Positions 7,679 through 41,183 of a stretch of DNA of 64,000 bases are shown one piece after another. The notes beneath the pieces are model-generated. The model ran no database searches, was not told the DNA's origin, and saw nothing but the letters and a program-made list of their open reading frames with translations. This DNA comes from an uncultured Cellvibrionaceae bacterium (GTDB taxonomy: Bacteria > Pseudomonadota > Gammaproteobacteria > Pseudomonadales > Cellvibrionaceae): the NCBI GenBank assembly GCA_964542655.1, contig CAZIWB010000010.1, forward strand, positions 137,533 through 201,532, given 5' to 3'. Position numbers and translations under genes: made by a program. The first letter of the stretch is position 1; the number at the start of each line of letters is the position of its first letter.

Positions 7679-7698
7679 AATAGATCATCCTATAAAAA

Positions 7699-8539: not shown

Positions 8540-8540
8540 A

Positions 8541-8951: not shown

Positions 8952-8971
8952 AATTCAATTCCTTTCAAATA

Positions 8972-10035: not shown

Positions 10036-10295
10036 CGGATTCTTTCATACTTGTTGTCTTCGTCAACCAGAACATAAAGGAAAAGCTCTTCGTTAGAAAG
10101 CATCTCATTAATTGTCGTGGAATTAAAACGATCATACAACATTTGACCATTTGGCTTTACGGCAGTAAGAGAAATCTTCTTACCGATTGTGCCAAGGCGA
10201 TATTCGTTGCGCGGACCCGCGAACGTCTGGTGAAACACACGAAGGTTATCCGTGCCATATTCACCCATGATTTCCCGAATGTCATATTTCTTCAT
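10032..10295 (-). CDS. Hypothetical protein
   Basis: 87 aa ORF. Confidence 0.4.
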   Translation of the reverse strand: MKKYDIREIMGEYGTDNLRVFHQTFAGPRNEYRLGTIGKKISLTAVKPNGQMLYDRFNSTTINEMLSNEELFLYVLVDEDNKYERIR

Positions 10296-10297
10296 AA

Positions 10298-10570
10298 TTA
10301 AAAATCCCCAATTCTATGATAAGGAAAAGATGCGGTCACCACATTAATGAGGAAGTTTTTATCCTCTTGTGGGATGTCTTCTATGTCATTACTATATAAA
10401 AGTTTAGAAAGCCAGTTTGCGACGTGATAACCAATCTCTTCTTTATCAAGATTTTTGGTGCACTCTAGGCACGGAACATCCTCTACAGGAATCCTTTCAC
10501 ATGTGCAACCATAAATTACAACTGGTTCGATAAAAAAGTTGTTTTCGATGATTTCTTTAATACCAGTCAT
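10298..10570 (-). CDS. Hypothetical protein with CxxC...CxxC motif
   Basis: YGCTCERIPVEDVPCLECT suggests a zinc-binding motif. Confidence 0.4.
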   Translation of the reverse strand: MTGIKEIIENNFFIEPVVIYGCTCERIPVEDVPCLECTKNLDKEEIGYHVANWLSKLLYSNDIEDIPQEDKNFLINVVTASFPYHRIGDF

Positions 10571-10790
10571 CTTCTGTCATTTCCATAAACCTAATCGGGT
10601 AGTCTTGTGGGATAGGTGCCCACAAAGAACCCCGGATAAAAAGGGTTGATAGATCATATCCATCTTCGGCATCTAGAATCTGGCCATCAATATAATGGGC
10701 GATAGCAGAGGAACATCCATCATCACACAGAACTACAATTTTGGTTCCGTTTTCTGGCTGTTCCTTTGCCCATTCTTTCCATTCAAACAT
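10557..10790 (-). CDS. Hypothetical protein
   Basis: 77 aa ORF. Confidence 0.35.
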   Translation of the reverse strand: MFEWKEWAKEQPENGTKIVVLCDDGCSSAIAHYIDGQILDAEDGYDLSTLFIRGSLWAPIPQDYPIRFMEMTEDDWY

Positions 10791-10793
10791 GTA

Positions 10794-11063
10794 TTAATTC
10801 CATACCTGAAGCTTAATTCCCGTATCACTGATATAGGCCATAGCTTCACCGTCAAAAAACTCATTATTGATCATGGTTTCCTGATCAACATGGAATCTTA
10901 CGACATTGCGCGTTTTTGGGTTATACAGCTTCATTTCAGGCGGAAATTGAACCATGTCCAGCGTATCCAGATAAGTTACGCCATTGCCGTTAGCCCACAC
11001 TACAAGATTTGCATCGATCATATCAATCACCCTATGTTTCGTTTTGATGATTTCTTTTATCAA
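10794..11063 (-). CDS. Hypothetical protein
   Basis: 89 aa ORF. Confidence 0.35.
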   Translation of the reverse strand: MIKEIIKTKHRVIDMIDANLVVWANGNGVTYLDTLDMVQFPPEMKLYNPKTRNVVRFHVDQETMINNEFFDGEAMAYISDTGIKLQVWN

Positions 11064-11078
11064 AAGAAAATTAGGGTG

Positions 11079-11264
11079 TCAATAATAATCGTCGGGAAGC
11101 TTTGTTCCATGTTCTGTATAAAAGGCGGCGCGATAATAAATTTCGTCAATGGATAATTTTGAGTCTTTCAGATATTTTACCCATTGGTTGAAACGAGCCT
11201 TTTCCTTTTTGGTAGGCTGTCTCGTATTCCGCATTTGCTCGCCCCAATCAATCATGGGAACCAC
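11079..11264 (-). CDS. Hypothetical protein
   Basis: 61 aa basic ORF. Confidence 0.3.
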   Translation of the reverse strand: MVPMIDWGEQMRNTRQPTKKEKARFNQWVKYLKDSKLSIDEIYYRAAFYTEHGTKLPDDYY

Positions 11265-11521
11265 CAGACCGCCTTAGCATCTTTTGATGTCTTCTCTAGC
11301 GTTGCTCTCTCTTCGTAGAAATCAATCCAGTGGTAATACTCATCTGTTGCTGATTTCTTAGCATTTTCTAATGAATTATATTCACCAACATAAGTCCAGC
11401 TTCTAAAGTATAAAGACCAATGCAAGGCCCTTTCCACCACAAAATTTCCCGTAGTAGTTTCGACTACACGAACACGAACGCCGTGTGGATATTTCTTTTT
11501 AAAGGGCCACATTACCAACAC
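11252..11521 (-). CDS. Hypothetical protein
   Basis: 89 aa ORF. Confidence 0.35.
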   Translation of the reverse strand: MLVMWPFKKKYPHGVRVRVVETTTGNFVVERALHWSLYFRSWTYVGEYNSLENAKKSATDEYYHWIDFYEERATLEKTSKDAKAVWWFP

Positions 11522-11766
11522 TCGTTTGCTTTAATCTCTTCCTTAACGTCTTCCAACGTATAGACATGAATTCCGTAAATCATACCATCAACCTCAAAAG
11601 AAGAACCACCTTCACCAGATGCATACATATCTGGAATTGCTTCCTCTAGAAGCTTGATACATTCTTGTGATTCATAAAAAGAAACACCAGTGCTGCCATC
11701 GCCGTTATCATGGGTTGTATAAAAAATTCTTTCCATAGTTTTCACTCCTTCTTTCCATTTCATCAT
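11512..11766 (-). CDS. Hypothetical protein
   Basis: 84 aa ORF. Confidence 0.35.
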   Translation of the reverse strand: MMKWKEGVKTMERIFYTTHDNGDGSTGVSFYESQECIKLLEEAIPDMYASGEGGSSFEVDGMIYGIHVYTLEDVKEEIKANECW

Positions 11767-11859
11767 GGCACTTCAAGCACCACGTAGAAACGTCTTTGCG
11801 CCCTTCTTCAAACCTAAGAATCCATCCACAATAAACACATTCCCAAGTTTCGAATTTCA

Positions 11860-12279
11860 TTATTCTGTCACTTTAAATGTTTCGGTCACATCTTTGATGA
11901 TTTCTGGTACGTAGAAGACTTCTACCTTCTCGCAGACCCGCCAATACCCATATTCAGATGTACCGATAACAACATATTGTAAATCCCAAAAATCAGCACC
12001 TTCATAAAAATCTTCGTCATAGAAATTATGTTTCAATGCTAATTGGTGCCCCAAATAATTCAACTCGTTGATGGATTCAGTTGTAGATTCTGCATTACCA
12101 AACTTACCCGGATTTTTGTGATCATTTACAGATTTGAATAGATTACAAAAATCAACATAGAACCTTACTTGTTCTACGGTCAACCCATCAAGAGATACCG
12201 TGTTATGATTATCCCAATCATTTTCCCAAGAATGGACTTTGATTAGGAAACCTGATTTAATATCAGTCATTATTTTCAC
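11860..12279 (-). CDS. Hypothetical protein
   Basis: 139 aa ORF. Confidence 0.4.
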   Translation of the reverse strand: MKIMTDIKSGFLIKVHSWENDWDNHNTVSLDGLTVEQVRFYVDFCNLFKSVNDHKNPGKFGNAESTTESINELNYLGHQLALKHNFYDEDFYEGADFWDLQYVVIGTSEYGYWRVCEKVEVFYVPEIIKDVTETFKVTE

Positions 12280-12454
12280 TCATCTTCAAAAAGTTCCTTG
12301 CGAATATTAGACGCCAACAAAGCCATCACACCAAAAAGGGTTATGTCTTCTGTTGTTATCTGTCTTCCCCATAGAGAGGGGATAAACACCCAAAAACCAA
12401 TAATAATAGCTAGAAATAAAAGCACACCAATACTTTTTAACAAGATAATTTCCT

Positions 12455-12865
12455 TTAGGTGAGAGTAGGTAGTTTGCCTAGATCATCATTGACATTATCA
12501 ACCGAAATAGGGCCGATACCTAGACATACAGTAGTAGGTTCTTTGAACACAGTTCTTCCAGCATCGGTTACCAGAGAGGTACCGCAAACGTACTTATAGG
12601 CTTCCTGAAGCTCTTTAAGCTCTTCTACGGTATCGACTACCACAGTGATTTTCATGGCTATTCCGCTGTCTTTATATGCTAATGCCTGTGCCTTTTTCTT
12701 TTCATGAATTTCATCAAATTCACAATCCTGAAACGCATAAGGTTCCATAGCATCCCAATAGGCATGAAGGTAGGCATGGCCAGCCATAGAAGCCATCTTA
12801 CCACGAATCCCGTTGATCTTAGCAAGGGATTCTCTGGCGAATACACAATACATTTTATGCGTCAT
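12455..12865 (-). CDS. Peptidyl-tRNA hydrolase PTH2-like (tentative)
   Basis: The C-terminal LVTDAGRTVFKEPTTVCLGIGP resembles the PTH2 family motif (D-A-G-x-T ... A-I-G-P). Confidence 0.4.
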   Translation of the reverse strand: MTHKMYCVFARESLAKINGIRGKMASMAGHAYLHAYWDAMEPYAFQDCEFDEIHEKKKAQALAYKDSGIAMKITVVVDTVEELKELQEAYKYVCGTSLVTDAGRTVFKEPTTVCLGIGPISVDNVNDDLGKLPTLT

Positions 12866-12870
12866 AACAA

Positions 12871-13182
12871 TTACTCCGGGTAATCTAGTGGTCTAAATAG
12901 AGGCCTTGAAAAGTCCCGTTCCATTTCCACTGTGGTTAGGTCATTTGCAATTATCATCCCTTGGATGTATCCAAGCCATCGGTTAAGCTTGCAAAGGGGC
13001 AATCTATCATCACACCCATTGATAAAATCGCTCATGAATTTATTGAAGGTTATCAATTCGTCTAATGGCATTCCGGTGTATGTTTCACCCCAATACCGCG
13101 TATCATCGATAATGGGAGCGATCATCTTTTTATATCGCTCCCCCATTATCTTCAATGCATCATAATATGCATCTTCATCCAT
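12871..13182 (-). CDS. Hypothetical protein
   Basis: 103 aa ORF. Confidence 0.35.
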   Translation of the reverse strand: MDEDAYYDALKIMGERYKKMIAPIIDDTRYWGETYTGMPLDELITFNKFMSDFINGCDDRLPLCKLNRWLGYIQGMIIANDLTTVEMERDFSRPLFRPLDYPE

Positions 13183-13745
13183 TACTTGATTTCCACGCCG
13201 TCATCAACACCAGTTTCAAAAGCATTACCAGCGTGACCAGAAATTACAATCTTTTCATACTTTTCGAAGAAACCAGACGTAGGATATCCAGCCAGACGAT
13301 AGAAGAATGAAGTAGGCATGGTGCCAAGTGCAGTCTTGTACGAACGCACACGATCAATCTTATCCTTCTGCGCAAGGGCAAAGTCGTTCCGGCCTGCTTC
13401 AATCAGGGTAAGAATCTTAGCATAGGTGGATTGATCCAGATTAGGATTCTGTTCCATGATCCACTGAATAGAGGCCTGTGAACCTTCTTCGCCATAGCGG
13501 CTTTCGTTAGCCTTGGTAATCACTTCTTCAACCGCACTAGCCTGAAGCTTGGTTACGCCAAGGGCTTCCTTCAGCTTTGGTGCATACTGGCCAAGCACGT
13601 TACGCGATTGATCATGGGCCGCAATGATGCTTTGTTCATATGCGTTCGCAGTGTTGTTCGCAGACATATACGAACCGATACCCATGATGATTGCCAGAAC
13701 GAAAGCACCAACAATACCAAGACCAATAATAGAAGTTTTACTCAT
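13182..13745 (-). CDS. Membrane-anchored protein, LemA-like (tentative)
   Basis: N-terminal TM helix (IIGLGIVGAFVLAIIMGIG) followed by a ~160 aa soluble region; size and topology resemble LemA. Confidence 0.3.
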   Translation of the reverse strand: MSKTSIIGLGIVGAFVLAIIMGIGSYMSANNTANAYEQSIIAAHDQSRNVLGQYAPKLKEALGVTKLQASAVEEVITKANESRYGEEGSQASIQWIMEQNPNLDQSTYAKILTLIEAGRNDFALAQKDKIDRVRSYKTALGTMPTSFFYRLAGYPTSGFFEKYEKIVISGHAGNAFETGVDDGVEIK

Positions 13746-13757
13746 TATATAATTCCT

Positions 13758-14783
13758 TTAATTTCTAACAACAACGATACCGATGCCAATTGAAGCGATC
13801 AACCCAAGAATAATTGAGGTAATAATTGCCCATTGCGGTACGTCAATTTCGTTTTCAAGATATTTAAATTCTTCCATGGGTCTACGGATGTAGTGTTCCC
13901 TGATGTTTCTATATACAATATTCAATGTGGTTTGTCTATCTAAAACTTTAGATGCCAGCAATTCATTTCGCATGGCCACATTCACAATATCATTTTTAGA
14001 CCACGAAAACACCTTAACCCATTTGATTTCTGGATAATTTTCTGTACCAATTACTACGGTAACATCATTCTTTTTACCACCAATCCATGCCGCTTGTAGG
14101 GCATCACCATAGGATTCTTTTTGGTTGGTAATCACAGTAACAATGTTTACCTGTTTCTTAGCACCAAGCGTTCTAAGCTGGTTAGAGACACTTTCATTCC
14201 ATAGAGCCAGATCAGGAATCTTTACCCCTACAGGGATAACCCTATCGATCCGGTGATAATCATATGGTGCTGGATAGTTTGGGATTTTACCCTTGTACGC
14301 ATTAGCCAGCGCAAGATGGAACAAGCTATCTGGTGCCGCTTTAACATAATTCGTGTAGTTACGCTCAAACGCCACAGGCTCATACATCTTAACCTGTGCC
14401 CAACGTTCCGGCATTTCAGACCCGCGCCTATCTACACGGGAAATATAGAAAGGCCCTACCGTAGTGTCAACTCGCCAATCCCAATCATTGGTATGTTCGT
14501 AGCAAGTATGACAAGTTCTATGTCCGTTTTTGTCTGTTGAACACATGCAATCATATGAGTGTTCACAGGAAGTTCTTTCCTGTTCCTTGGCGTTTATGTA
14601 TCCATTCACGATATTCGTGTCACCCATCGCGCCCATGGTAGATGAGAAGTACACAATACATGACAGAATCATAGGAACCACTGCCTGCACCGCCATTTCT
14701 GGAATTGTAATTTTGTGATGAAAATAATATTTCATGACCAGCATGACAAGAATCGCTGGCAAAAAGATTAAAAATAAAGTCAT
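13758..14783 (-). CDS. Large membrane protein (N-terminal and C-terminal TM segments, Cys/His-rich ectodomain)
   Basis: TM segments at both termini; cluster SCEHSYDCMCSTDKNGHRTCHTCYEH. Confidence 0.45.
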   Translation of the reverse strand: MTLFLIFLPAILVMLVMKYYFHHKITIPEMAVQAVVPMILSCIVYFSSTMGAMGDTNIVNGYINAKEQERTSCEHSYDCMCSTDKNGHRTCHTCYEHTNDWDWRVDTTVGPFYISRVDRRGSEMPERWAQVKMYEPVAFERNYTNYVKAAPDSLFHLALANAYKGKIPNYPAPYDYHRIDRVIPVGVKIPDLALWNESVSNQLRTLGAKKQVNIVTVITNQKESYGDALQAAWIGGKKNDVTVVIGTENYPEIKWVKVFSWSKNDIVNVAMRNELLASKVLDRQTTLNIVYRNIREHYIRRPMEEFKYLENEIDVPQWAIITSIILGLIASIGIGIVVVRN

Positions 14784-14835
14784 TCACGTCCCCTATTAAA
14801 TATGAATGACCGTATACTTCAAATCATTTCATATG

Positions 14836-15270
14836 TCAAATAGAATCCAAGTTGGTGTGTCTAACAGTCACGGTTTTTTCGCCGCGCAACCTAGCACCTA
14901 ATATTTCATGATGTCCATCGGAAACGTAGTGTTTGCCTTTATGGGTGATCACATGGGCGTTTTTAAATCCGCCATTGATTTTGTTGTGGAGTTTTTCGCC
15001 ATCGCTAACCTTAACAAAGGGCTGTGTGGCGTGTAAGTCTTTTATGTGGAAGGTGGTTTTCTTGTCTTCTATCTTGTGCCCATGTGTTTCGTATTTTTGC
15101 ACGGCAGAACCGATAGAGGAAGGATGACCACGTTTTGAGAGGGGAATGTAAGTGTGTTTATCTGCCTTTAGGCCAGAACCACGATAAGACTTGTTACCGT
15201 GTATTCTGGCCATCCTTAAGGCTGCTTCCTGTCCCGTCTTTTCTGCTAGAAACTCTTTGAAACTTATCAT
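14836..15270 (-). CDS. Putative packaged internal protein with T4-type capsid-targeting N-terminus; basic His/Lys-rich, with a weak ParB-like DGHHEILGARLRG motif
   Basis: The N-terminus MISFKEFLAEK matches the T4 internal-protein capsid-targeting sequence (MKTFKEFLAE / MKTYQEFIAE), including a gp21-type FLAE cleavage context. Confidence 0.45.
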   Translation of the reverse strand: MISFKEFLAEKTGQEAALRMARIHGNKSYRGSGLKADKHTYIPLSKRGHPSSIGSAVQKYETHGHKIEDKKTTFHIKDLHATQPFVKVSDGEKLHNKINGGFKNAHVITHKGKHYVSDGHHEILGARLRGEKTVTVRHTNLDSI

Positions 15271-15277
15271 CTACTAT

Positions 15278-15595
15278 TTATTGAAAAACGTAGAGCAAGC
15301 TTTCTATGAAGGTAATAGCATTAGCACGTGCCTTACGCGGAAACGTAGCAGTTTCAACTTCTGCTACGTCATGCTGAACAACAATGCTGTCTGGTGATGT
15401 GATAAGCCTAGCAGTATATTGGCTGGTAGGCGTACTGAAAAATAAGACTTCCTCCCCCACAATAGTTCTTTTTTCTATAACTAAAAAAGGAAAGGCATCC
15501 TCATTCAACTCATTGCGGTATACTTGTAGTTGCAACCCTGTTACCCCCATGAAATGGGCAGGGGTATTTTTGGTTACCCCTGCCCTATTGATCAA
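15278..15595 (-). CDS. Hypothetical protein
   Basis: 105 aa ORF. Confidence 0.35.
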   Translation of the reverse strand: MINRAGVTKNTPAHFMGVTGLQLQVYRNELNEDAFPFLVIEKRTIVGEEVLFFSTPTSQYTARLITSPDSIVVQHDVAEVETATFPRKARANAITFIESLLYVFQ

Positions 15596-15822
15596 GCCTC
15601 CTTAGGCTTGCGTGGACCATATGCGCGCTTGGCTTTGTCTTGCGCCATACGGATGACATCGGAAGGCTTGATCTTCTCTGCCGTATTGAGGTTGGGGCGA
15701 AACACCGAAATCTTTCGGGGAGACTTCCCTACGACAATACCGATAGAGGGGCGACCACGCCGACCTTCAACCATATATTCGATTTCACTACCAATCGTGA
15801 TATTCTTAAGGCTCTTAGCCAT
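15592..15822 (-). CDS. Hypothetical protein
   Basis: 76 aa ORF. Confidence 0.35.
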   Translation of the reverse strand: MAKSLKNITIGSEIEYMVEGRRGRPSIGIVVGKSPRKISVFRPNLNTAEKIKPSDVIRMAQDKAKRAYGPRKPKEA

Positions 15823-16053
15823 CTCTATTCTCCATCAAAAATATAACACTATATTTACATCATAACAAAAACTAAGACTATTCAAAACCTTAGTGACCAG
15901 TTCAGACTTACCTTCCTTGGTTGTTTCTAAGATATGATTCCTCTTGACTTTTGTCAAGGCGCAAAAAGCGCGCGCTTTCAACGCTTTATAAGATTTCATG
16001 GAAAAATGTTAAACGGAAAACGAATCAAAGAGGCTGATTCGTGATACCTAAAT

Positions 16054-16127
16054 TGGCATCCCTCGTAGGAGTCGAACCCACGCTTGCTGGGTTGGAGCCA
16101 GCCGTGCTACCGTAACACTTGAGGGAT
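16054..16127 (-). tRNA. tRNA-Trp (CCA)
   Basis: Anticodon arm GCTGG-CTCCAAC-CCAGC, T-arm GTGGGTTCGACTCCTAC, encoded CCA. Confidence 0.75.
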
Positions 16128-16135
16128 GCATATGA

Positions 16136-16405
16136 TTAAACCCTGTTTTTGCCTATATGGAACCCATCACAGAACACGCACTTGTATGGACGGAACTTAC
16201 CCCCATGCTTCCTTTGCATACTCTCACAGGCCTTTGTAGCGGATTTTAGAGAACCATAAGCTACCTTATGGTTTCCCGATCCTTGGCTGATATGCGAGTT
16301 GCGATGGAACATGCCCCATGCGTTTCTGGTGACTATGAAGTTAACAAACATCCTCTTTAGGGGTATCTGAAACTTCAAGGCCAGATAGAGATTTTTAATT
16401 TTCAT
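16136..16405 (-). CDS. Hypothetical protein (C-terminal CxxC...HxGKN)
   Basis: 89 aa ORF between tRNAs. Confidence 0.35.
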   Translation of the reverse strand: MKIKNLYLALKFQIPLKRMFVNFIVTRNAWGMFHRNSHISQGSGNHKVAYGSLKSATKACESMQRKHGGKFRPYKCVFCDGFHIGKNRV

Positions 16406-16417
16406 AAGTTTAAAATC

Positions 16418-16492
16418 TGGTACCCGGTGACGGGATTGAACCGCCGACCTTATCCGTGTAGGGGATTTGCTCTACCGCTGAGCTAACCGGGC
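16418..16492 (-). tRNA. tRNA, probable Val (anticodon TAC), C33 atypical
   Basis: Acceptor GCCCGGT/ACCGGGT, D-arm GCTCAGCGGTAGAGC, loop CCTACAC, T-arm GGCGGTTCAATCCCGTC. Confidence 0.55.
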
Positions 16493-16515
16493 ACTATGTG
16501 GTATTTAGTAAATTT

Positions 16516-16587
16516 TGGAGTGGCGTAGGGGAATTGAACCCCTTGACGTATGCTTTGCAGGCAATGTCCTACACCATTACACGCCAC
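16516..16587 (-). tRNA. tRNA-like, anticodon loop CTGCAAA (Cys GCA?), shortened D region
   Basis: Acceptor GTGGCGT/ACGCCAC, T-arm AGGGGTTCAATTCCCCT, CCA encoded. The body is about 4 nt short, so the fold is imperfect. Confidence 0.4.
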
Positions 16588-17002
16588 CCTCTTGCAACTG
16601 GTTGATGGATTGCATCAGCCGAGTTAGACGTTTGTCTTGCTCTTTTGGCCATCCATGAAATGTAAGCTCATTGTATATATGCGCTGCCATCTCGTCAACC
16701 CCATATTTATCATTTTCTATGACTTCCATGTTTTTTAGTTGCGACCATGGGATGAAATCTAAGGCCCATCGCCGCCCATCCTGATCAAGCCCATCCACCC
16801 AAGCCATAGAATCTGAATCTGAATACGCTTCTACCGTGATCGATAGTGCATCTGGATCACCTGTAGCGGTTATGAATGACATGGCAAGCACAAACTTTTC
16901 AAAGGTTTGCACGTTTGCCCACTTGTCATCCCCATAGGATTCTATATAAGCCTCTATCACCTTTTCAGGGGAGGCTTTGGTTATGTAGTCAATCAGTTTC
17001 AT
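16577..17002 (-). CDS. Hypothetical protein (start set at internal Met to avoid tRNA-Gly)
   Basis: The track ORF 16577..17083 would overlap tRNA-Gly; Met at 17002 chosen instead. Confidence 0.4.
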   Translation of the reverse strand: MKLIDYITKASPEKVIEAYIESYGDDKWANVQTFEKFVLAMSFITATGDPDALSITVEAYSDSDSMAWVDGLDQDGRRWALDFIPWSQLKNMEVIENDKYGVDEMAAHIYNELTFHGWPKEQDKRLTRLMQSINQLQEGGV

Positions 17003-17022
17003 AATAATCCTGTAGTGGAGCG

Positions 17023-17099
17023 TGGAGCGGGTAACGGGATTCGAACCCGTACCATCAGCTTGGAAGGCTGCAATGCTAGCCATTGAACACCATACCCGC
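17023..17099 (-). tRNA. tRNA-Gly (TCC)
   Basis: Acceptor GCGGGTA/TACCCGC, loop CTTCCAA, T-arm ACGGGTTCGAATCCCGT; resembles T4 tRNA-Gly. Confidence 0.8.
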
Positions 17100-17435
17100 T
17101 CAAAAATTAAATACTAATCACTCGTGTCATACCGCCTATGTTGCGGTAAACGAATAACATTTTCTTGCTATTCTTAGAATACCTGATTGATATAGACTTG
17201 TTATGCCAGAATTTCAAGACAAATCCAACATTATTTGGATCATCAAAACGATACACATTAAACCCGTATCGTACTTCCTCTAATTCTCGCCTAAACCTTA
17301 TCATCTACTTTTCCGTAGGATTCCCGTGCTGCAATGATTTCATCTCTTTCAGGCGGAATAGACTTCCAACCCCAATAGATTACCGCTGCAAAAATCCCGT
17401 ACCAAACAAATTCCATATTGTAAACCTTTTATTAA

Positions 17436-21147: not shown

Positions 21148-21377
21148 ACCCGGAAATATTCAAAATCGGATTCAGTTGCTGGCTTCAGGTTATCACTAGG
21201 CATGATGATCACATATCCATTTTCCCAATCATATCCACCGTGTTGCGGCTTACCAGCCAGAACGCCAAAATACTCTGGCTGTTCATCAATCACATAACCA
21301 AGCGTGTGACCATCCATGACATAATATTTCGTCATATCAATTTCCCTTAAGTTTGTTTTTCCAAAAGTCGCGTTCAC
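21123..21377 (-). CDS. Hypothetical protein
   Basis: 84 aa ORF. Confidence 0.35.
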   Translation of the reverse strand: MNATFGKTNLREIDMTKYYVMDGHTLGYVIDEQPEYFGVLAGKPQHGGYDWENGYVIIMPSDNLKPATESDFEYFRVCPKGHIA

Positions 21378-21537
21378 CGCGTAACATCTGGCCTACATCA
21401 GAAGATGCCGAAAATTGTTTGATTGTGGAATTAAGGTTGGCAATTTCTTCATGTGCAAACTGCATACCATTCTTTTTGAATGATTCGCGACCTTCCTTAA
21501 TTCCCATCAAATATGCATCTGTGTACTGGTTAGTCAT
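21337..21537 (-). CDS. Hypothetical protein
   Basis: 66 aa ORF. Confidence 0.3.
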   Translation of the reverse strand: MTNQYTDAYLMGIKEGRESFKKNGMQFAHEEIANLNSTIKQFSASSDVGQMLRGERDFWKNKLKGN

Positions 21538-21764
21538 TATATACTAATCCGAATAGGAGATGCGAAGATATTTTTATGCCCAATAGCTTTTAGCTTCTTC
21601 ACTAGGCGCAATGCGCTCTTACGTGTACGAAGCCTTTGCGTGTAGTTGATTGGCTTACTGTGCTCGTTTCCGTTGAAATAACGAATCTCATATCTAACTA
21701 CCGTTTTCATAATCAATTCCCTTCCGTCTTGATGGTTGACGTATAATTGATTCGTGAATTTAAG

Positions 21765-21995
21765 TCAAATTAATTCTACTCGCCAATACCCGCGCCGCTT
21801 ACTAGCTTTGAATGCGCTTTCATCTTTATTCTTAATGGCATCATTAACGCGACGAATATCTGCAATATCACGACCAAAGCTAACATCTTGCCATTTGCTC
21901 TGCGCGAAACATTTATTAACAATAACATGAAAAATTGCCTGTTCAGCAGTTTCATATACTTGATGGCGGCTAAGAGGCTTTACATTGATGTGCAT
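21765..21995 (-). CDS. Hypothetical protein driven by repeated promoter/leader cassette 1
   Basis: The ATG is immediately preceded by the conserved 30-nt leader ...GAAGGGAATTAAAC. Confidence 0.5.
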   Translation of the reverse strand: MHINVKPLSRHQVYETAEQAIFHVIVNKCFAQSKWQDVSFGRDIADIRRVNDAIKNKDESAFKASKRRGYWRVELI

Positions 21996-22054
21996 GTTTA
22001 ATTCCCTTCGTGTCTTGTTGATCTACGTATAAGAGATTTAAATTATCATGTCAA
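21996..22054 (-). promoter_or_regulatory. Repeated sigma70-like promoter (TTGACA-17-TATACG) plus a conserved 30-nt leader/RBS, copy 1
   Basis: Minus-strand reading: TTGACATGATAATTTAAATCTCTTATACGTAGATCAACAAGACACGAAGGGAATTAAAC-ATG. Confidence 0.6.
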
Positions 22055-22078
22055 GAATTAATTTTGCCTTTAATTCCC

Positions 22079-22351
22079 TTAGCGGTAGTAAGCCGCACCA
22101 TAGGCCGAAACCTGCGAAGCGCCATTAGCGATGTTGCCACGAACGCCCTTAGCAGGGGTTGCCCAACTAGCAGACTTCAGGATGTTGCCCGTTGCGTTTT
22201 CAACGAAGCAAAAAACCGAGCGATAGTTACCTGCATGGTTTTCTACGATGCGGGTATACTTGCGGCCCTTCATGACCGAGATAACAAGGTTACGGCCAGC
22301 TTGATCAACCTTGGCCTGTACTTCGTTTACAAAGTTCTGAATGTCGGTCAT
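22079..22351 (-). CDS. Hypothetical protein
   Basis: 90 aa ORF preceded by a diverged copy of the cassette. Confidence 0.45.
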   Translation of the reverse strand: MTDIQNFVNEVQAKVDQAGRNLVISVMKGRKYTRIVENHAGNYRSVFCFVENATGNILKSASWATPAKGVRGNIANGASQVSAYGAAYYR

Positions 22352-22418
22352 GATTTAATTCCTTGTTTGTGTCTCTCTATGATTTGGTTATATGGTAATA
22401 CCAAATCCAAGTCAACAT
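22352..22418 (-). promoter_or_regulatory. Diverged copy of the promoter/leader cassette (TTGACT-17-TATAAC, leader ending AAGGAATTAAATC)
   Basis: Minus strand: TTGACTTGGATTTGGTATTACCATATAACCAAATCATAGAGAGACACAAACAAGGAATTAAATC-ATG. Confidence 0.45.
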
Positions 22419-22446
22419 TTATTTTTCAAAAAAGAAAAAATATCCA

Positions 22447-22638
22447 TTAAAAAGACTGTCCCTTAAGAACGCGCTTTTTGTGTGCCATAATGCGCTTGCC
22501 CAAATCAAGAGCAATGAAAGTGCGCGGCTGGCCCATCTCACGAACTTCTACCAGAAGAGTACCATCAACAGCGCTAGGAAAGAACCCCTTGCAATCGTTA
22601 CCGTAAAAATCAGAAATCAGCTTGCGAAGACCAGTCAT
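22447..22638 (-). CDS. Hypothetical protein, cassette copy 2
   Basis: 63 aa ORF directly after the leader. Confidence 0.45.
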   Translation of the reverse strand: MTGLRKLISDFYGNDCKGFFPSAVDGTLLVEVREMGQPRTFIALDLGKRIMAHKKRVLKGQSF

Positions 22639-22686
22639 ATTTAATTCCCTTCGTGTCTTGTTGATCTACGTATAATAGATTCATTT
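22639..22686 (-). promoter_or_regulatory. Promoter/leader cassette copy 2 (TTGACC-17-TATACG)
   Basis: Leader identical to copy 1 except for the last base. Confidence 0.6.
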
Positions 22687-22801
22687 GATTCGGTCAAGAA
22701 TTATTTTCAAATATTTTTCGCGCCCATGTAAACCATAGCAACACTAGCGACAAGAAAAGCTACACCAACCATATTAATTCCCCTTGAAATATTATGTCAA
22801 A

Positions 22802-23032
22802 TTAACATTCGACATTAATGTCAAGGCGGAAAAAGAAAGTGCCAAGGTTCTTAGAGAAATCATGCTTGGCGCGGTCCATAGAACCAGCGTAATACTTCAG
22901 AAGACGAAGCGTAGCAATTTCACTGCCATAGGCATAAACACAGCCACTAAGATGTTCGATGGTAAGTTCTTCACCGGCTTCCTTGGACCATGCTTGACCG
23001 AGAAGCTTCAGTTGGTTTGCGGTGATTTCCAT
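22802..23032 (-). CDS. Hypothetical protein, cassette copy 3
   Basis: 76 aa ORF directly after the leader. Confidence 0.45.
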   Translation of the reverse strand: MEITANQLKLLGQAWSKEAGEELTIEHLSGCVYAYGSEIATLRLLKYYAGSMDRAKHDFSKNLGTFFFRLDINVEC

Positions 23033-23092
23033 ATTTAATTCCCTTCGTGTCTTGTTGATCTACGTATAAGGGAATTAAATCATCCTGTCAAA
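23033..23092 (-). promoter_or_regulatory. Promoter/leader cassette copy 3 (TTGACA-17-TATACG)
   Basis: The spacer contains GGATGATTTAATTCCC; same leader. Confidence 0.6.
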
Positions 23093-23100
23093 TATTATTT

Positions 23101-23295
23101 TCATTTTTTTCTTAGATATCGTGCCTTGCGAGTGCACCGCCTAAAAGCACTTTCCAAAAGAGAAAGAACAGGGCGATAGTTACCAACCCGCTCTAACCCC
23201 ATCATCTCATACCAATAATGATTAGCCGCAGCCTGCCATTCTTTTGCTGTCCATGATGTCTCTGGACCTTTAGGATATGGGAAGGGATGTGACAT
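23101..23295 (-). CDS. Hypothetical protein (internal Met start)
   Basis: The track ORF 23101..23451 overlaps the cassette-4 gene; Met at 23295 follows that gene's stop. Confidence 0.3.
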   Translation of the reverse strand: MSHPFPYPKGPETSWTAKEWQAAANHYWYEMMGLERVGNYRPVLSLLESAFRRCTRKARYLRKK

Positions 23296-23296
23296 A

Positions 23297-23695
23297 TTAA
23301 TATCCTTCAGGCTGGATTGTGACACCCGGAACAGTCCAACCATTCCAGAAAATGCTAAGCGGCATTTTATTACCAGTATCAGAATAAACACCAAAGCGAA
23401 TCCCAAAGCGATAATCAAACATAGGCTTAATGGTTTCCATAGTGGCACCACCCTTAATTGCTTCCAGAACGGCAGGAACGATATCTTGACAACGCTGGAT
23501 CATCTGTGCCTTTTCAGTGATTACTTTGGTGTTAGAGGCAGACTTGCGGCCATATACAGCCTTACCAGCACAATCGCGACCATAATAAACCACACCACCA
23601 GCTTCATCTTCAAGAGCTACAGTGCACTTCAGGTTCTTCTTACCGCAGCAATCGCAATTGGTGATTTCATCAGTGATACCAAGAATCTTGAACAT
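23297..23695 (-). CDS. Hypothetical Cys-rich protein, cassette copy 4
   Basis: 132 aa; CDCCGKKNLKC...C...DC gives multiple Cys pairs. Confidence 0.5.
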   Translation of the reverse strand: MFKILGITDEITNCDCCGKKNLKCTVALEDEAGGVVYYGRDCAGKAVYGRKSASNTKVITEKAQMIQRCQDIVPAVLEAIKGGATMETIKPMFDYRFGIRFGVYSDTGNKMPLSIFWNGWTVPGVTIQPEGY

Positions 23696-23752
23696 ATTTA
23701 ATTCCCTTCGTGTCTTGTTGATCTACGTATAAGGGATTTAAATGATTCGGTC
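23696..23752 (-). promoter_or_regulatory. Promoter/leader cassette copy 4 (TTGACC-17-TATACG)
   Basis: The spacer has the palindrome GGGATTTAAATCCC. Confidence 0.6.
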
Positions 23753-23938
23753 AAGAATTATTTTTCAAAAATAAAAATTAATTACCGAAATCATATGAGG
23801 GAGTGTTTTCAAAAATAGGCAACGAACCGTTAGATGTTGCTGCCTGAAATTGTCCCCACGAAACAGACGTATTGGTATCTACCCATACGCGCCCGTTTAA
23901 GTGGAGGAAACAAATCCCATGAAAGAAAATCAACATGA

Positions 23939-24121
23939 TCAAGCCGCCTTGACAATGCGATTCAACTCGCGCGGATCGAAGTATGAAGTCTTATCAAACT
24001 TCACGCAAAATTCGGTATCCTTGAGGCGTACAAGATGTCCAATCGCGGCATCTTCAGAAAGGCCACCATCAACCAGAATGGCCATTGCTTTGTGGGGAGC
24101 GAAAAACATTGTGTCGGTCAT
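23939..24121 (-). CDS. Hypothetical protein, cassette copy 5
   Basis: 60 aa ORF directly after the leader. Confidence 0.4.
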   Translation of the reverse strand: MTDTMFFAPHKAMAILVDGGLSEDAAIGHLVRLKDTEFCVKFDKTSYFDPRELNRIVKAA

Positions 24122-24179
24122 ATTTAATTCCCTTCTGTCTTGTTGATCTACGTATAAGGGATTTAAATCATCCTGTCAA
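24122..24179 (-). promoter_or_regulatory. Promoter/leader cassette copy 5 (TTGACA-17-TATACG; leader with a 1-nt deletion)
   Basis: The -35 overlaps the stop codon of the upstream protease gene. Confidence 0.6.
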
Positions 24180-24736
24180 ATATTATTTTTAAATTTATAT
24201 CCATGAATCCACCTTCCAGAATAGGATAGGGAAGCAATAGGCCTGAAATCGCTATCAGTGCTGGATTCAATGATGCTCTTGTTCATGTTATCAAGAATAT
24301 AAAACTTACCATCGATCTTAACAGCCAATACAGCGTGATACTGGTTCATCGATAGAACCTTACCAACCACGATATAAAGATCATTCCTAGAGAAGCCTAG
24401 GCGGGTTAGAATGTGGTATTTCAGGATAGCATAATCTTCACAATCACCTGTAGCAAGTCTTAGGGTTGTGCTAGGTGTTTGCCATGTATCTACAGGTCCA
24501 TCCAGCTTATATGTGACATAGGTATTAACCCAATCATTTACCAGCTTTATCTTTTCCTGTTTGGATAGGTTAGAATGTTTCTTGAAATTAGAAAATTGTT
24601 CAGGGGAATTTTTAGTGCCTTCCCATCTAGCATCGTAGTTTGTCTTTTTGATTTCTATAGGTACAGAATTGTATATAGCCGGGGTGGCATATACTGGTGT
24701 ACTGATAAGGGCTAGTGCTATTAGAAACCTTTTCAT
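24176..24736 (-). CDS. Secreted transglutaminase-like cysteine protease (BTLCP family), paralog 1
   Basis: Signal peptide MKRFLIALALISTPVYA, then the ATGDCEDYAILKY Cys motif, a later His (QYHAVLAV) and Asp (YILD); same family as 29546..30136. Confidence 0.55.
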   Translation of the reverse strand: MKRFLIALALISTPVYATPAIYNSVPIEIKKTNYDARWEGTKNSPEQFSNFKKHSNLSKQEKIKLVNDWVNTYVTYKLDGPVDTWQTPSTTLRLATGDCEDYAILKYHILTRLGFSRNDLYIVVGKVLSMNQYHAVLAVKIDGKFYILDNMNKSIIESSTDSDFRPIASLSYSGRWIHGYKFKNNI

Positions 24737-25004
24737 AATCCTATTTATAAAAAATGGGGTATGAGACATAAGCCCCATACCCCTTAGTTAATTCAATGAA
24801 ATATAAGATAAATGTTATTCAACATTAAACTTAGAGTTAGTGTTGTGTGATAGGACTTTACTACTTTCCTACCTTCAGCGAGGGTTTCCATCGCCAATCG
24901 CATCACAACATACGACGCCCTTATAGGTCTTTACTATTGTCACACACCCAATAGATAGTGTCCATATATCCTTTTAAGCCCCTATATGGAAGGCTAGTAA
25001 ACTT

Positions 25005-25083
25005 GTTGGTTGCGGGAGCGGGATTTGAACCCGCGACCTTCTGCTTATGAGACAGACGAGCTACCGGACTGCTACTACCCCGC
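25005..25083 (-). tRNA. tRNA-Met/Ile2 (CAT)
   Basis: Acceptor TGCGGGG/TCCCGCA, anticodon arm TCTGT-CTCATAA-GCAGA, T-arm GCGGGTTCAAATCCCGC. Confidence 0.7.
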
Positions 25084-25202
25084 AACAAAATGATATTAAA
25101 AGAGAATAGACAATACTTATGGTGATCTAGGAGGATCGATGAAGTATACAAGAAAATGTTGGAATTTTATGTCTATTCTCATTTAATACCACTTTCGTAG
25201 TA

Positions 25203-25454: not shown

Positions 25455-25889
25455 TATGTTATTCCTATTGTATTTATAAGCGTGAGATTACCGCTTTCTA
25501 TAGGTGCCTTTGAACCGTACCGATTGCCTTGCGAGCATCGTTAATCCTTTATCCACTAATCCCTAAGCCTCTTTGGAAGGCTATCATTGGTAACTAGTAT
25601 AACCTAGTGCTGCCGTTTTTGAAGTCTGGCGTTTGACTTGTCATATACTGCTACTCATCCGTCAATCCTACGTCCACTTTTTAGGGCGATTAAGATTCCG
25701 CTAAGAATCACCGTTATCTTTTCGAATAATCCCTTCAGCCTTGCGAGCATCCGAGAACCACGTTACCTTGCGGCCATGGTATTAAGCACCTTTAACAGTA
25801 TACCGGAACAGACTTTGCGTTTTGATGTGTAAATTGTTTTTAGATAACAATCGCGTCTACCGTTCCGCCACTCCCCCATAAATTTTTAA

Positions 25890-26403
25890 TGGTGGGGGAG
25901 GCAGGATTTGAACCTGCAAATCTGTGTAACCTACCTAGAAGTGCTGTTCCTGTTGCTCCCTTCTCTTTCGAAAAAGGAATACCACACTCCTACTGTCTTT
26001 CGTCTTGCGAACTACTAAACCATTCTTCACGACTTAGGGCACTTAGTGCACCCCTTACCATTTGAATTGCTATCTTGCCTTTTTGCGCGAACAATCAGAC
26101 TCAATAACTACCTATTAACTGTCAGCAATCGTAATATTGGCTTGCGATGACGAAAGCGCCAACTCTCTTAGATACTCACCGATCTAGCTCTGTACCCTAT
26201 CCTTTCGGATCATCACTATTACTTACTACCTATCTCCATTCTACAGAAGACCCTTTCGGGTAGTCTTAGGCTTTTATAGACGGATTGTTATGAGCGAACC
26301 CATAACAACAGGGTATTGTAGGAATATCCCTTTTTCAATGTATTACTACATTTTATCCTAGATTTCGGTAGCAAGCTACCTAGTCAGGGGACTATACTCC
26401 CCT
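25890..26403 (-). ncRNA. Candidate structured RNA (~510 nt) with a tRNA-like 3' end; tmRNA-like, intron-containing tRNA or phage stable RNA
   Basis: ORF-free on both strands. The 3' end has a T-arm GCAGGTTCAAATCCTGC followed by CTCCCCC-A-CCA, which can pair with a 5' AGGGGAG at 26397-26403. There are several GAAA-tetraloop hairpins (ACCCGAAAGGGT, ATCCGAAAGGAT). A hairpin CTCCCCCA/TGGGGGAG lies just beyond the 3' end. Confidence 0.3.
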
Positions 26404-29061: not shown

Positions 29062-29147
29062 TGGTCCTAGGTGTAGGAATCGAACCTACCCGGCCTTTTA
29101 CAGCGATCCGTTATGAGCGGACGGACTCCCCAATCGTCTTACCTAGG
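29062..29147 (-). tRNA. Type II (long variable arm) tRNA with CAT anticodon, atypical
   Basis: Acceptor CCTAGGT/ACCTAGG, D stem GAC/GTC with an 9-nt loop, anticodon arm GTCCG-CTCATAA-CGGAT, 16-nt variable arm CGCTGTAAAAGGCCGG, T-arm GTAGGTTCGATTCCTAC. Confidence 0.5.
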
Positions 29148-31171: not shown

Positions 31172-31650
31172 AGAAGTATTTAGTAAACTCGTATTTTAGA
31201 AAACCAGCGTGTCTGCCATTCCACCACACCCGCACTATACTTGTATTTAGTCATTGATGCATCAGGATTCTAACCTGCTTTTGGAAGCCCATTTGTTTTA
31301 TGTTGGATTCGAACCAACCACCTAGACCGTATACAGTCTTGCCACATGCACATCAACATTTCTTATCTGTGGAGAGTATTTTAAAGCATATAATAAGGAA
31401 CTCTCTTAACAGATTTAATCAAATTGTGTTTCGTCAATCCATGCTATTGCTAAAGAGATTTCTTCAAAATTCTCCGCAATCGGATCATATTCACCATGTT
31501 CAAACACATCGTAACGATCATCACTTTGAAGGATGATAACATATCCGCGATGATATTTTTGTTTGGTCCGTGCCATGATTAAATCTCCTGTCTCGTTGAA
31601 TTAACTTGTACAGAAGTAATAAAATCATGTCAACTACTATTTTAATTCTC

Positions 31651-31726: not shown

Positions 31727-31802
31727 CTGGTGCTTCATGTAGGTACCGCCCCTACCGCCTTTCGCTTATCAGGCGAATGCTCTACTTCTGAGCTAATGAA
31801 GC
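31727..31802 (-). tRNA. tRNA-Ile (GAT) with an aberrant T-loop (GGCGGTA in place of TTCRANY)
   Basis: Perfect acceptor GCTTCAT/ATGAAGC, D-arm GCTCAGAAGTAGAGC, anticodon arm TTCGC-CTGATAA-GCGAA, CCA encoded; the T-stem is GTAGG/CCTAC but the loop is GGCGGTA. Confidence 0.55.
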
Positions 31803-32315: not shown

Positions 32316-32394
32316 TGGCCTCGCAGGAGGGATTCGAACCCCCATCGATCCAATTACGGTGCTACGGTTTAGAAGACCGTTCCGATACTGCGAG
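32316..32394 (-). tRNA. Atypical tRNA-like gene: canonical TCT (Arg) anticodon arm, but the D-arm position is nearly empty and a D-loop-like 20-nt segment sits between the anticodon and T arms
   Basis: RNA: CTCGCAG-TA-TCGGA-ACGGT-CTTCTAA-ACCGT-AGCACCGTAATTGGATCGAT-GGGGGTTCGAATCCCTC-CTGCGAG-G-CCA. Confidence 0.4.
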
Positions 32395-33722: not shown

Positions 33723-34143
33723 CTATTCAACAATACTTAGAAAAGCTTACCCGTACCGTGCACTCGCACGATTTCTATAAGGGGAGTCATCCCTAAAGCG
33801 AACGTTTTGTAAGGTGACTAGCCTCATTTGTCGTTCCATTGGAGGATAAGCTTATCTAAATATTGACAAGCCACGTGTTTCAAGATACCGGGCGAACTAA
33901 AGCCTAACACTTAGTTCCTTTCGCTGACAATGCTTATACTTTATTGTATAAAGCCTGTCAAGACCTAATTTATTCTAACCTACGATGTCAAAGAGCATCT
34001 TATTTATCTTTTTATATCACTATAAATTGAGAAAAACAAGATTTATTTGCGGGAATCTGAGAATAATTTATTCCTTTTCGCCGCGTTGTTGAAGCACTTA
34101 TAGGCGCATCGTCCAACCCTGTCAACATATAAATACACATAAT

Positions 34144-40430: not shown

Positions 40431-40498
40431 AACAATTACTCCGTTTGCTTGTTGATGAGGTACTTCTAAACGATTTCAAAATTGGTGTCAACACATTT

Positions 40499-41029
40499 TT
40501 ACGAAAAAATTTTCTTTCCTGCAAAATGTTCTGCCAAGAGGTATTCGCCTGTGCGATTGACGCGGAAAATATGGCCGCTCTGGATTTTATTATGCTTCTG
40601 TGCGGTAGTCTGGATCGTCACACCGCTAGGGGTTGTGTACAAATAGCGATGGATGGTGCGCTTACGTGCACGGGTAAGCTTATAGGTGTGGCAGCGTTCA
40701 CCAGAACCACCAAGCATACGTGTAGCAGCCTTCCAATTCTTGTTGTGACCCTTAATGCCATACTTAATAGTCTTGAAGCCAACCAGATGCGCAACTTCAT
40801 GGGGAATGGTGTCTTTAATCATATCTTCAGTATATTTTTCTACTGCTTCAGGATTAAAAGAAAGACCATACACCCCATTTTGATAATACGCATATGCCGA
40901 AGCCTGACCCTTCGCAGTGAAATCAATTACAACATCACCCATATCAATGCCAAATTTTTCCGCTGCAAGTTCAAGGCACTTGTAAACAGCGGTCATAAAA
41001 TCAACTTTCTGGTCATGGGTCAGTGTCAT
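40499..41029 (-). CDS. SprT-like zinc metalloprotease
   Basis: HEVAHL (HExxH) plus a C-terminal Cys/His cluster. Confidence 0.55.
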   Translation of the reverse strand: MTLTHDQKVDFMTAVYKCLELAAEKFGIDMGDVVIDFTAKGQASAYAYYQNGVYGLSFNPEAVEKYTEDMIKDTIPHEVAHLVGFKTIKYGIKGHNKNWKAATRMLGGSGERCHTYKLTRARKRTIHRYLYTTPSGVTIQTTAQKHNKIQSGHIFRVNRTGEYLLAEHFAGKKIFS

Positions 41030-41183
41030 AATTCAATCTCCATTCGTTATGCCACCCTTATAGATGTTCATATTTAATCCGTCAACATCAAATTTGAAAA
41101 AATTTCAAAAAATATGAAAGGAGCGAAACGCTAAATATTAGTAATAAAATGTCAAAACATATCAATATAAGGGAGAATAATTT

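Follow-up and report, generated by a model that had tools for sequence, protein, structure and literature searches.

Probable PeSL-type early promoter cassettes in a tRNA-rich region of a distant T4-type myovirus

Promoter-early stem-loops (PeSLs) were described in the T4-type coliphages RB49 and phi1 as repeated intergenic cassettes of ~100 bp that are found in hyperplastic regions (Arbiol 2010, PMC2839356). A PeSL is defined by an upstream stop codon in an AT-rich tract, sigma70-like boxes, a stem-loop, and a Shine-Dalgarno (SD) sequence and ATG at its 3' end, and it lies between open reading frames (ORFs) without homologues (PMC2839356, PMC4122927). The PeSLs of RB49 and phi1 are very strong promoters that recombine with each other to give indels and mini-circles, with mini-circle crossovers that map to the interval from the -10 to the SD/ATG (PMC2839356). 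Studies of the PeSLs and PmSLs of PST/T4 and nt-1/KVP40 revealed that the cassette consensus varies by lineage (Comeau 2014, PMC4122927). Here we describe an array of near-identical promoter-plus-leader repeats in a 64,000-nt stretch of contig CAZIWB010000010.1 (assembly GCA_964542655.1, positions 137,533 to 201,532; hereafter, the window). The repeats are likely PeSL-type early regulatory cassettes in a hyperplastic, tRNA-rich region of a distant T4-type myovirus. An initial annotation of this DNA had proposed a modular cassette system giving small genes common expression signals, which is the published PeSL concept (PMC2839356, PMC4122927). The array is, on this reading, a further example of a concept known since 2010 and not a new phenomenon, in a lineage that is distant and uncultured.

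The array comprises five near-identical units of ~72 nt and two diverged ones, so that 2.9 kb of the minus strand holds seven copies. A profile hidden Markov model built from the seven copies (nhmmer) returned the five with E=2e-20 to 1e-18 and the other two with E=3e-14 and 5e-11. The copies, with their individual E-values, are as follows.

24119..24191, minus strand: cassette c24121, TTGACA (24179-24174), 17-nt spacer, TATACG, 29-nt leader with a 1-nt deletion (GACA-GAAGG), ATG 24121; E=1.3e-18
23693..23767, minus strand: cassette c23695, TTGACC-17-TATACG, 30-nt leader, ATG 23695; E=1.8e-20
23030..23102, minus strand: cassette c23032, TTGACA-17-TATACG, 30-nt leader, ATG 23032; E=4.5e-20
22636..22710, minus strand: cassette c22638, TTGACC-17-TATACG, 30-nt leader, ATG 22638; E=5.8e-19
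22349..22428, minus strand: diverged cassette c22351, TTGACT-17-TATAAC, 35-nt leader, ATG 22351; E=5.4e-11
21993..22066, minus strand: cassette c21995, TTGACA-17-TATACG, 30-nt leader ending AAAC not AAAT, ATG 21995; E=2.5e-19
21708..21778, minus strand: seventh cassette c21713, TTGACT-17-TATACG, leader TCAACCATCAAGACGGAAGGGAATTGATT, ATG 21710; E=3.2e-14

Within the unit, an AT-rich tract is followed by TTGAC(A/C), 17 nt, TATACG, a leader of 29-30 nt that is A/C-rich and weakly structured, AAGGG(A) 8 nt before the ATG, and the ATG itself. The tract before the -35, (G/A)AAAATAAT(A/T)(T/C), is UP-element-like, and AAGGGAATTAAAT-ATG closes every core copy, so that the SD and start codon stand at its 3' end. 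All seven copies have TTGAC(A/C/T)-17 nt-TATACG or TATAAC, and the TTGAC(A/C)-17-TATACG promoter of the initial annotation is present in each of the five near-identical ones. The stop codons of upstream genes lie 0-30 nt from the unit. Two fall within the -35 hexamer, namely the TGA of the upstream transglutaminase-like gene in c24121 and the TGA of the preceding gene in c21713. The ATGs at 24121, 23695, 23032, 22638 and 21995 open ORFs of 60, 132, 76, 63 and 76 aa, respectively.

The repetition before the genes ending at 21995, 22638, 23032, 23695 and 24121 had been noted earlier, and it is far beyond chance. The minus strand has four exact matches to the 35-mer TATACGTAGATCAACAAGACACGAAGGGAATTAAA (21997, 22640, 23034, 23697), against none in 100 dinucleotide shuffles. 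The leader, which had been called conserved to the nucleotide, is nearly so: the exact 35-mer is shared by four copies, while the deletion in c24121 and the AAAC ending of c21995 depart from it. The diverged copy placed at 22352-22418 was recovered as 22349-22428 (TTGACT-17-TATAAC, nhmmer E=5e-11). The earlier count of five copies plus one diverged copy stands for the units it listed; it had missed c21713, a truncated copy at ~22770-22800, and three diverged members at 31.6, 34.1 and 40.5 kb on the minus strand. A MITE (miniature inverted-repeat transposable element) or transposon reading was rejected, as there are no terminal repeats and all copies are co-oriented at ORF starts.

Pairwise differences computed among the five core copies are distributed very unevenly along the unit.

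-10: 0%
30-nt leader: 2.7%
-35: 10%
Upstream AT-rich tract: 24%
Spacer: 26%
First 30 coding nt after the ATG: 73%

The Fisher test of spacer against leader (p=3e-14) is descriptive only, because pairs of copies are not independent. Three core copies are identical over the 41 nt from the -10 to the ATG, and the spacers are mosaics of each other; for example, the 5' half of the c23695 spacer matches c22638 and its 3' half matches c24121. Uniform recent duplication does not explain a spacer difference of 26% beside a leader difference of 2.7%. The pattern suggests that copies recombined or underwent gene conversion around the -10-to-ATG block, or that the leader is under selection; the two may operate together. 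The repeats could also have been part of a longer duplicated coding segment, an outcome that the initial annotation had named as refuting its proposal. This is not the case, because identity stops at the ATG and the encoded proteins are mutually unrelated.

The seven-copy profile also added three full-length diverged members elsewhere in the window (E=7e-5 to 4e-3), which keep a looser leader, ATCAAC(A/G)AGAC...GGA(G)...ATG, and two partial elements were found within the array.

22770..22800, minus strand: truncated cassette, TTGACA, 9 nt, AAGGGGAATTAAT-ATG, without a -10, preceding a 22-aa hydrophobic mini-ORF (22704-22772)
22069..22080, minus strand: orphan exact ribosome-binding site (RBS) box AAGGGAATTAAA, overlapping the stop of the 90-aa gene directly upstream of c21995; possibly a recombination scar
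31574..31643, minus strand: diverged member, TTGACA-17-TACAAG, leader ttaattCAACgAGACAgGAGatTTAAtc, then ATG; E=6.9e-5
34063..34135, minus strand: diverged member at the head of a tRNA array, TTGACA-17-TATAAG, CAACAA...AAGGAATAAAT leader, no adjoining ATG; E=0.0037
40438..40503, minus strand: diverged member, TTGACA-17-TAGAAG, leader tacctcATCAACAAGCAaacGGAGtAATTgtt, then the ATG of a 318-aa ORF (39474-40430); E=0.0029

The promoter of the cassettes was described in the initial annotation as sigma70-like. It does have a full housekeeping-sigma anatomy with 17-nt spacing; its TATACG, however, is without the T at -7 that E. coli sigma70 needs. A conventional, E. coli-style sigma70 promoter scan detected no cassette copy, and it misses every one because of this missing -7 T. 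In the window as a whole, TTGAC-N18-TAnAnn sites number 27 against 3.9 expected, and they stand before genes and tRNAs. Of these 27 sites, 18-19 have G as the last -10 base and only four have T (p ~2e-7, or 2e-5 with near-identical repeats collapsed). TATACG is therefore the normal -10 of this genome, whose general promoter consensus is TTGACA-17-TAnA(A/C)G. Examples are the following.

33932-33961, minus strand: consensus promoter
34096-34125, minus strand: consensus promoter
41056-41085, minus strand: consensus promoter
57067-57096, plus strand: consensus promoter
62248-62277, plus strand: consensus promoter

Promoters without the -7 T form the majority in Alphaproteobacteria and are rare elsewhere (PMC7703639, PMC8407463). 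The cassettes may thus be housekeeping-sigma promoters of a host that prefers a G-ending -10, possibly an alphaproteobacterium, and since a missing -7 T is typical of alphaproteobacterial promoters the G-ending -10 offers a usable clue to the host. With their TTGAC -35 and TATACG -10, and with neither TATAAATA nor a MotA box (TGCTT at -30), the cassettes were rejected as late or middle promoters. TATAAATA is not enriched in the window and is found in none of the cassettes. A TATAAATA lies at 24742-24749, near the start of the 200-aa gene upstream of the array.

The initial annotation had also reported a palindrome, GGGATTTAAATCCC, within the spacer, and had suggested that it might be an operator or RNA hairpin. 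That sequence does not exist in the window, where the best match has two mismatches and the spacers hold only GATTTAAATC or ATTTAAAT; the operator or hairpin reading falls with it. Folding of the intergenic regions revealed a different inverted repeat. The spacer arm, ATTTAA(A/T)TCCCTT, runs up to the first T of the -10; its reverse complement, the RBS arm AAGGGAATTAAAT, stops just short of the ATG. In c23032, the arm at 23068-23080 (ATTTAATTCCCTT) and the RBS arm at 23033-23045 (AAGGGAATTAAAT) are complementary at 13/13 positions (duplex -15.5 kcal/mol, p=0.002), and complementarity is 12/13 in c24121 and c23695. Overall, a spacer/RBS inverted repeat of 12-13 bp is found in 3-4 of the five core copies and in no case is it followed by a U-tract; the geometry is absent from c22638, c21713 and c22351. 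The diverged c22351 has instead an 8-bp hairpin of its own, GATTTGGT/ACCAAATC, spanning the -10 and likewise without a following U-tract. A terminator role for the spacer/RBS repeat was rejected, given the lack of a U-tract and a terminator scan that was empty between cassettes.

Compared with the PeSLs of RB49 and phi1, the units are alike in having an upstream stop codon and AT-rich tract, a -35, 17 nt, a -10, an SD, and the ATG of a small ORF without homologues, and in an inverted repeat over the promoter hexamers or between them. The zone in which the RB49/phi1 crossovers were mapped also corresponds to the stretch of identity in the present copies. They differ in that the sequences are unrelated, with TATACG as the -10 here and TATAAT there, and in that no G-run/C-run terminator stem-loop is present. 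The inverted repeat here has its arms in the spacer and the RBS, with the -10 and start site between them, an arrangement that is not among their five subclasses. Promoter activity and recombination were demonstrated experimentally for the RB49/phi1 PeSLs and are proposed from sequence for the present array. The cassettes analyzed by Comeau in 2014 resemble these in having a lineage-own consensus with -35/-10 variants, in occupying every gap in runs of ORFs, and in belonging to large, tRNA-rich genomes, and the truncated copy at 22770-22800 resembles the "degraded (1/2) PeSLs" seen near indels (PMC4122927). By contrast, their stem-loops are just upstream of the promoter, and their shuffling was shown from close genome pairs.

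Two further systems are similar in part. Lambdoid morons (Hendrix et al. 2000, discussed in PMC2839356) are likewise single accessory genes with their own promoter between resident genes; unlike the units here, which have conserved repeat flanks and are co-oriented, they are without conserved flanks and are often transcribed against the flow. The T4 "uber" early promoters (PMC2988021) share host-polymerase use, UP-like tracts, a consensus that extends beyond the hexamers, and a position directly before small non-essential genes. They differ in having TGn and a canonical -10 with a -7 T, and in being similar but not near-identical over 40 nt past the -10. The local peculiarities of the present array are thus its unusually invariant -10-to-ATG block, its spacer/RBS repeat in one sub-lineage of copies in place of a terminator stem-loop, and its G-ending -10.

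The window derives from a T4-type myovirus, with a source contig of 201.5 kb, as judged by Pfam matches that include Portal_T4 (E=3e-172), Gp23 (4e-145), the T4 scaffold, tail sheath, UvsW_N and Terminase_6N. Proteins encoded in it include the gp20 portal, gp23, the gp18 sheath, the scaffold, UvsW, a gp46-like protein and a T4-type TerL. The lineage is a distant one: its gp23 is at most 67% identical to that of any deposited phage (63-67% to distant T4-likes), with the nearest relatives being T4-likes of Stenotrophomonas, Sinorhizobium, Pelagibacter, Methylophilales and cyanobacteria, and megablast gave no match. There are 20-22 tRNA genes in the window, every one on the minus strand. The array occupies 21.7-24.2 kb on the minus strand of a tRNA-rich variable region. 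It begins at the stop codon of a gene for a secreted transglutaminase-like protein, is ~1.4 kb upstream of a primase-like gene, and has no synteny with relatives of 60-86% identity.

The genes behind the cassettes, which span 21337..24121 on the minus strand, are as follows.

23939-24121, minus strand: g60
23297-23695, minus strand: g132, plus the coupled g64 at 23101-23295
22802-23032, minus strand: g76a
22447-22638, minus strand: g63
22079-22351, minus strand: g90 (DUF7717, phrog_5014)
21765-21995, minus strand: g76b
21537-21710, minus strand: g57, plus g66 at 21337-21537

When the cargo proteins were compared pairwise, no pair matched at E<0.01. Pfam and PHROGs returned only DUF7717/phrog_5014 for g90 and PHROGs of unknown function for g76a and g57, and no known function. 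Homologues of g132 with 74% and 62% identity (L011:6001-6408, L016:3301-3699) were found in two unrelated phage types of 50% and 60% GC, one with a Phage_portal_3 portal and DnaG primase and the other with a DnaB helicase. Each is the first gene after a divergent intergenic region, heading an early or replication operon, and neither has a cassette; the cassette is therefore a property of this genome rather than of the gene. The g132 product is a small Cys-rich protein that appears to be widely mobile between phages. GC content at third codon positions was 0.56 in g90 and 0.51 in g60 against 0.32-0.42 in core genes, a rise that is only suggestive because the genes are small. Together, the unrelatedness of the proteins, the presence of g132 in unrelated, cassette-free phages and the raised third-position GC of several genes point to cargo that has probably been shuffled. 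The longest gap in the array, 246 nt between g60 and c23695, may hold an unannotated ORF of ~52 aa within 23778-23942 (minus strand), overlapping the g60 stop.

Searches for the cassette elsewhere included the search of related phages for the leader that the initial annotation had proposed. The leader, as an exact or degenerate sequence, was found in none of IMG/VR, the JGI metagenomes and the GTDB genomes, and megablast and blastn against deposited phages gave only matches of E>=0.6, to the AT-rich half. Exact-protein look-ups of g132, g90, g76a and P0121 returned no contig. The matching Logan contig begins 411 nt upstream of the primase-like gene and excludes the array. Relatives reached via the primase-like protein included L001, L005, L008 and L010, and two of these have promoter-leader units of their own. 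L001 (60% identity; the 142-kb viral contig IMGVR_UViG_3300010334_000029) has its own homogenised family, TTGACA-17-TAGACT-AAACTATAAGGAATGGAGAT..ATG, in at least five copies. L008 (65%) has the same promoter grammar, with G-ending -10s and a similar leader, in copies that are not homogenised. L005 and L010 have few such promoter sites, and none of the four is syntenic with the window in the array region. The likeness of the leader to sites at L001:329 and L008:2293 is suggestive and statistically weak (nhmmer E=0.05 at best). In L001, the cassette family at 7568-17171 is interleaved with at least 10 tRNA genes, and its spacer holds a small CCAC..GTGG palindrome.

We hypothesize that the PeSL-type cassettes would act as follows. 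Directly after infection, the host housekeeping-sigma RNA polymerase would start ~7 nt past each -10, so that every downstream ORF, likely an imported one, would receive the same strong early transcription and translation signals. This would make seven transcription units in 2.9 kb, most without room for terminators between them. Homologous recombination or gene conversion between copies would keep the 41-nt -10-to-ATG block uniform, given that T4-type recombination needs <50 bp of homology, and a further contribution probably comes from selection for the leader's role in translation initiation. The same block would serve as portable homology for inserting, deleting and swapping ORFs, as shown experimentally for the RB49/phi1 PeSLs.

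Several observations weigh against this interpretation. The terminator stem-loop that gave PeSLs their name is absent, as the terminator scan found none between cassettes and there is no G/C-rich stem-loop; the only candidate hairpin plus U-tract in the array is at 23811-23844 on the minus strand, in the gap between g60 and c23695 (GGCAGCAAC...GTTCGTTGCC, then TATTTTT). TATACG would be a poor -10 for an E. coli-type sigma70. No close relative with the array was found in the collections searched, so that cassette-bounded indels or swaps are a prediction here. The nearest relative at the flanking primase-like gene, L004, is 86% identical there and has a different neighbourhood with no cassettes. 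The identity of the leader could come from selection alone, or from recent duplication alone. Finally, the promoter, start site and early timing are drawn from sequence together with precedent in other phages.

Alternatively, the invariant leader could be a shared cis-target, recognized by a trans-acting phage factor that would shut off the set jointly after the early period. Candidates would be an early-mRNA endonuclease or a translational repressor (cf. T4 RegB and RegA), or a DNA-binding shut-off protein acting on the pair of inverted AAGGGAATTAAAT boxes that surround the -10 and start site. Leader conservation is ten-fold that of the spacer, and a related motif, ATCAACAAGAC...GGA, recurs at the diverged promoters at 31633, 40491 and 11082 and in the relatives at L001:329 and L008:2293. 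There is also precedent in T4, with RegB cleaving inside the SD of early transcripts, ~30 translation-initiation regions serving as RegA targets, and an early-promoter shut-off whose mechanism is still unknown (PMC2988021, PMC3014915). However, no candidate factor was identified in the window, the cassette leader is without the GGAG motif of RegB, the likeness to relatives is weak (E=0.05 for the L008 match) and could arise from RBS and composition constraints, and recombinational homogenisation explains the sharp identity block equally well. We regard a shared target as rather unlikely. Less probable again is that a single strong promoter was simply duplicated in series not long ago and plays no part in gene mobility, the ORFs having arrived by unrelated illegitimate events in the manner of morons. 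This would fit the confinement of the near-identical copies to 2.5 kb of one strand, the lack of a demonstrated shuffling event, and the similar, non-homogenised promoters of L008. A uniform young age, though, misfits both the mosaic spacers and the 26% divergence of spacers against 0-3% in the -10 and leader. Precise promoter duplication, repeated up to the ATG of unrelated genes, would itself need recombination at the cassette, and the truncated copy and orphan RBS box resemble recombination scars. Least probable of all, and in our view highly improbable, is that a polymerase or sigma factor specified by the phage uses the conserved 40-nt block as its promoter, in place of a host-type promoter followed by a leader. 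The long invariant block from TATACG onward loosely recalls single-subunit RNA polymerase promoters, and the -10 is non-canonical for E. coli. Set against this, TTGAC at exactly 17 nt is invariant even in diverged copies in which the block diverges, the TTGACA-17-TAnAAG grammar also precedes tRNA genes and many other genes, and TATAAATA is not associated with the cassettes. T4-type phages are not known to encode an RNA polymerase or to have a -35 in their late and middle promoters.

A fourth possibility would add to the PeSL-type explanation and would not replace it, namely that the spacer/RBS inverted repeat is an RBS-occluding hairpin built into the promoter. Because transcription from a cassette's own promoter would start downstream of the 5' arm, the helix could form in read-through RNA alone, which would carry both arms and fold over the SD; the cassette's own transcripts would lack the 5' arm and would be translated. 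The genes of such a terminator-less array would then depend solely on their own promoters for expression. Read-through itself is unavoidable, because stop codons abut or overlap the -35. The predicted duplexes are of -11.3 to -15.5 kcal/mol in c24121, c23695 and c23032 (p=0.002-0.006 versus shuffled spacers), with marginal cases in c21995 (p=0.08) and in an independent promoter at 31633 (p=0.036). In four of the five copies, the predicted probability that the SD and AUG are unpaired is 0.39-0.62 in own transcripts and drops to 0.11-0.30 on read-through, and in the alignment 77% of cells are paired with the helix in register compared to 27-65% with the partner slid. The same topology is established for the T4 genes e, soc, 49 and I-TevI, in which the promoter is within the 5'-strand DNA of a helix that sequesters the SD/AUG and read-through RNA is poorly translated whereas promoter-proximal RNA is translated (PMC3014915). 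Those are late or middle internal promoters that delay expression; here it would be an early promoter among other early promoters, and the pairing is a computed one, in one sub-lineage of copies. Against an occluding role, c22638 has an identical leader and no complementarity (p=0.68), and, among the 15 promoters of the window tested, most of the others are without spacer/RBS pairing. The L001 and L008 cassette families have none (best p=0.07-0.09 among 13 promoters of relatives tested). There was no covariation support for the helix, as 245 of 500 shuffles reached the observed pairing, and the three significant copies count as one event because of shared ancestry. The predicted effect is also only ~two-fold and not a switch, with own transcripts only about half open. 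The pairing was rejected as a conserved design, being confined to one sub-lineage and one marginal case, and an occluding function in the copies that do pair is doubtful. Somewhat more speculative still is a PeSL variant in the form of a self-insulating portable unit, whose genes would be translationally silent on read-through RNA, whose stem-loop would act on translation and not on termination, and whose shared leader would let one factor switch the set off. If the pairing is functional, it would be a way for the phage to avoid cumulative read-through expression in a terminator-less array.

The PeSL-type reading would extend such cassettes from T4 relatives infecting E. coli, Yersinia and Vibrio to a very distant, uncultured T4-like lineage. 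This array and the independently homogenised L001 family support the view that portable promoter/RBS cassettes are a general T4-type way to plug foreign genes into the early programme. The array also yields a ready set of genes that are probably early and accessory and are candidates for roles in host takeover or anti-defence, as well as a compact natural promoter-plus-leader part for a host with G at the last -10 position.

Additional features were observed in the region around the array. A full-length GOLLD RNA at 25479-25992 on the minus strand (Rfam RF02032, 155.6 bits versus a gathering score of 150, E=1e-41) has a tRNA-Met on one side and a tRNA-Lys pair on the other, and is ~1.3 kb upstream of the first cassette. 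A 26-nt inverted repeat (25087-25112 / 25170-25195), with arms that are 88% complementary and 57 nt apart, is directly upstream of the tRNA-Met at 25007-25084. The 200-aa gene encodes the transglutaminase-like protein, a cysteine peptidase (Peptidase_C93/BTLCP, E=8.5e-18). A strong terminator-like hairpin at 24756-24783 on the minus strand (12 bp, 7 of them G-C, followed by a T-run) overlaps the start of the longest ORF for this gene, and the true start is probably the ATG at 24736, which would open a signal-peptide-like sequence (MKRFLIALALIS...). The tRNA callers disagree at four places (31731-31802, 32319-32394; 7699-7787, 29062-29147): Rfam adds two tRNAs missed by ARAGORN, while a tRNA-Ser and a long tRNA-Met called only by ARAGORN are absent from the Rfam list at the gathering score.

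In L004, tRNA genes and long, GNRA-rich, apparently structured non-coding stretches (L004:1-800, 1100-1570) lie upstream in place of the array, and these stretches are possibly GOLLD-like; L004 also carries a Pyr_excise (endonuclease V-like) gene. Lastly, a fragment of the cassette leader, CAAGA-GAAGGGAATTAAAT, matching at 19/22 positions, was found at 51429-51446 on the minus strand inside a 464-aa ORF (50817-52211). In this ORF, N-terminal helix-turn-helix domains are joined to a C-terminal Mom-like domain, and the fragment, which may be a fusion or recombination scar, lies just before the Mom-like part.

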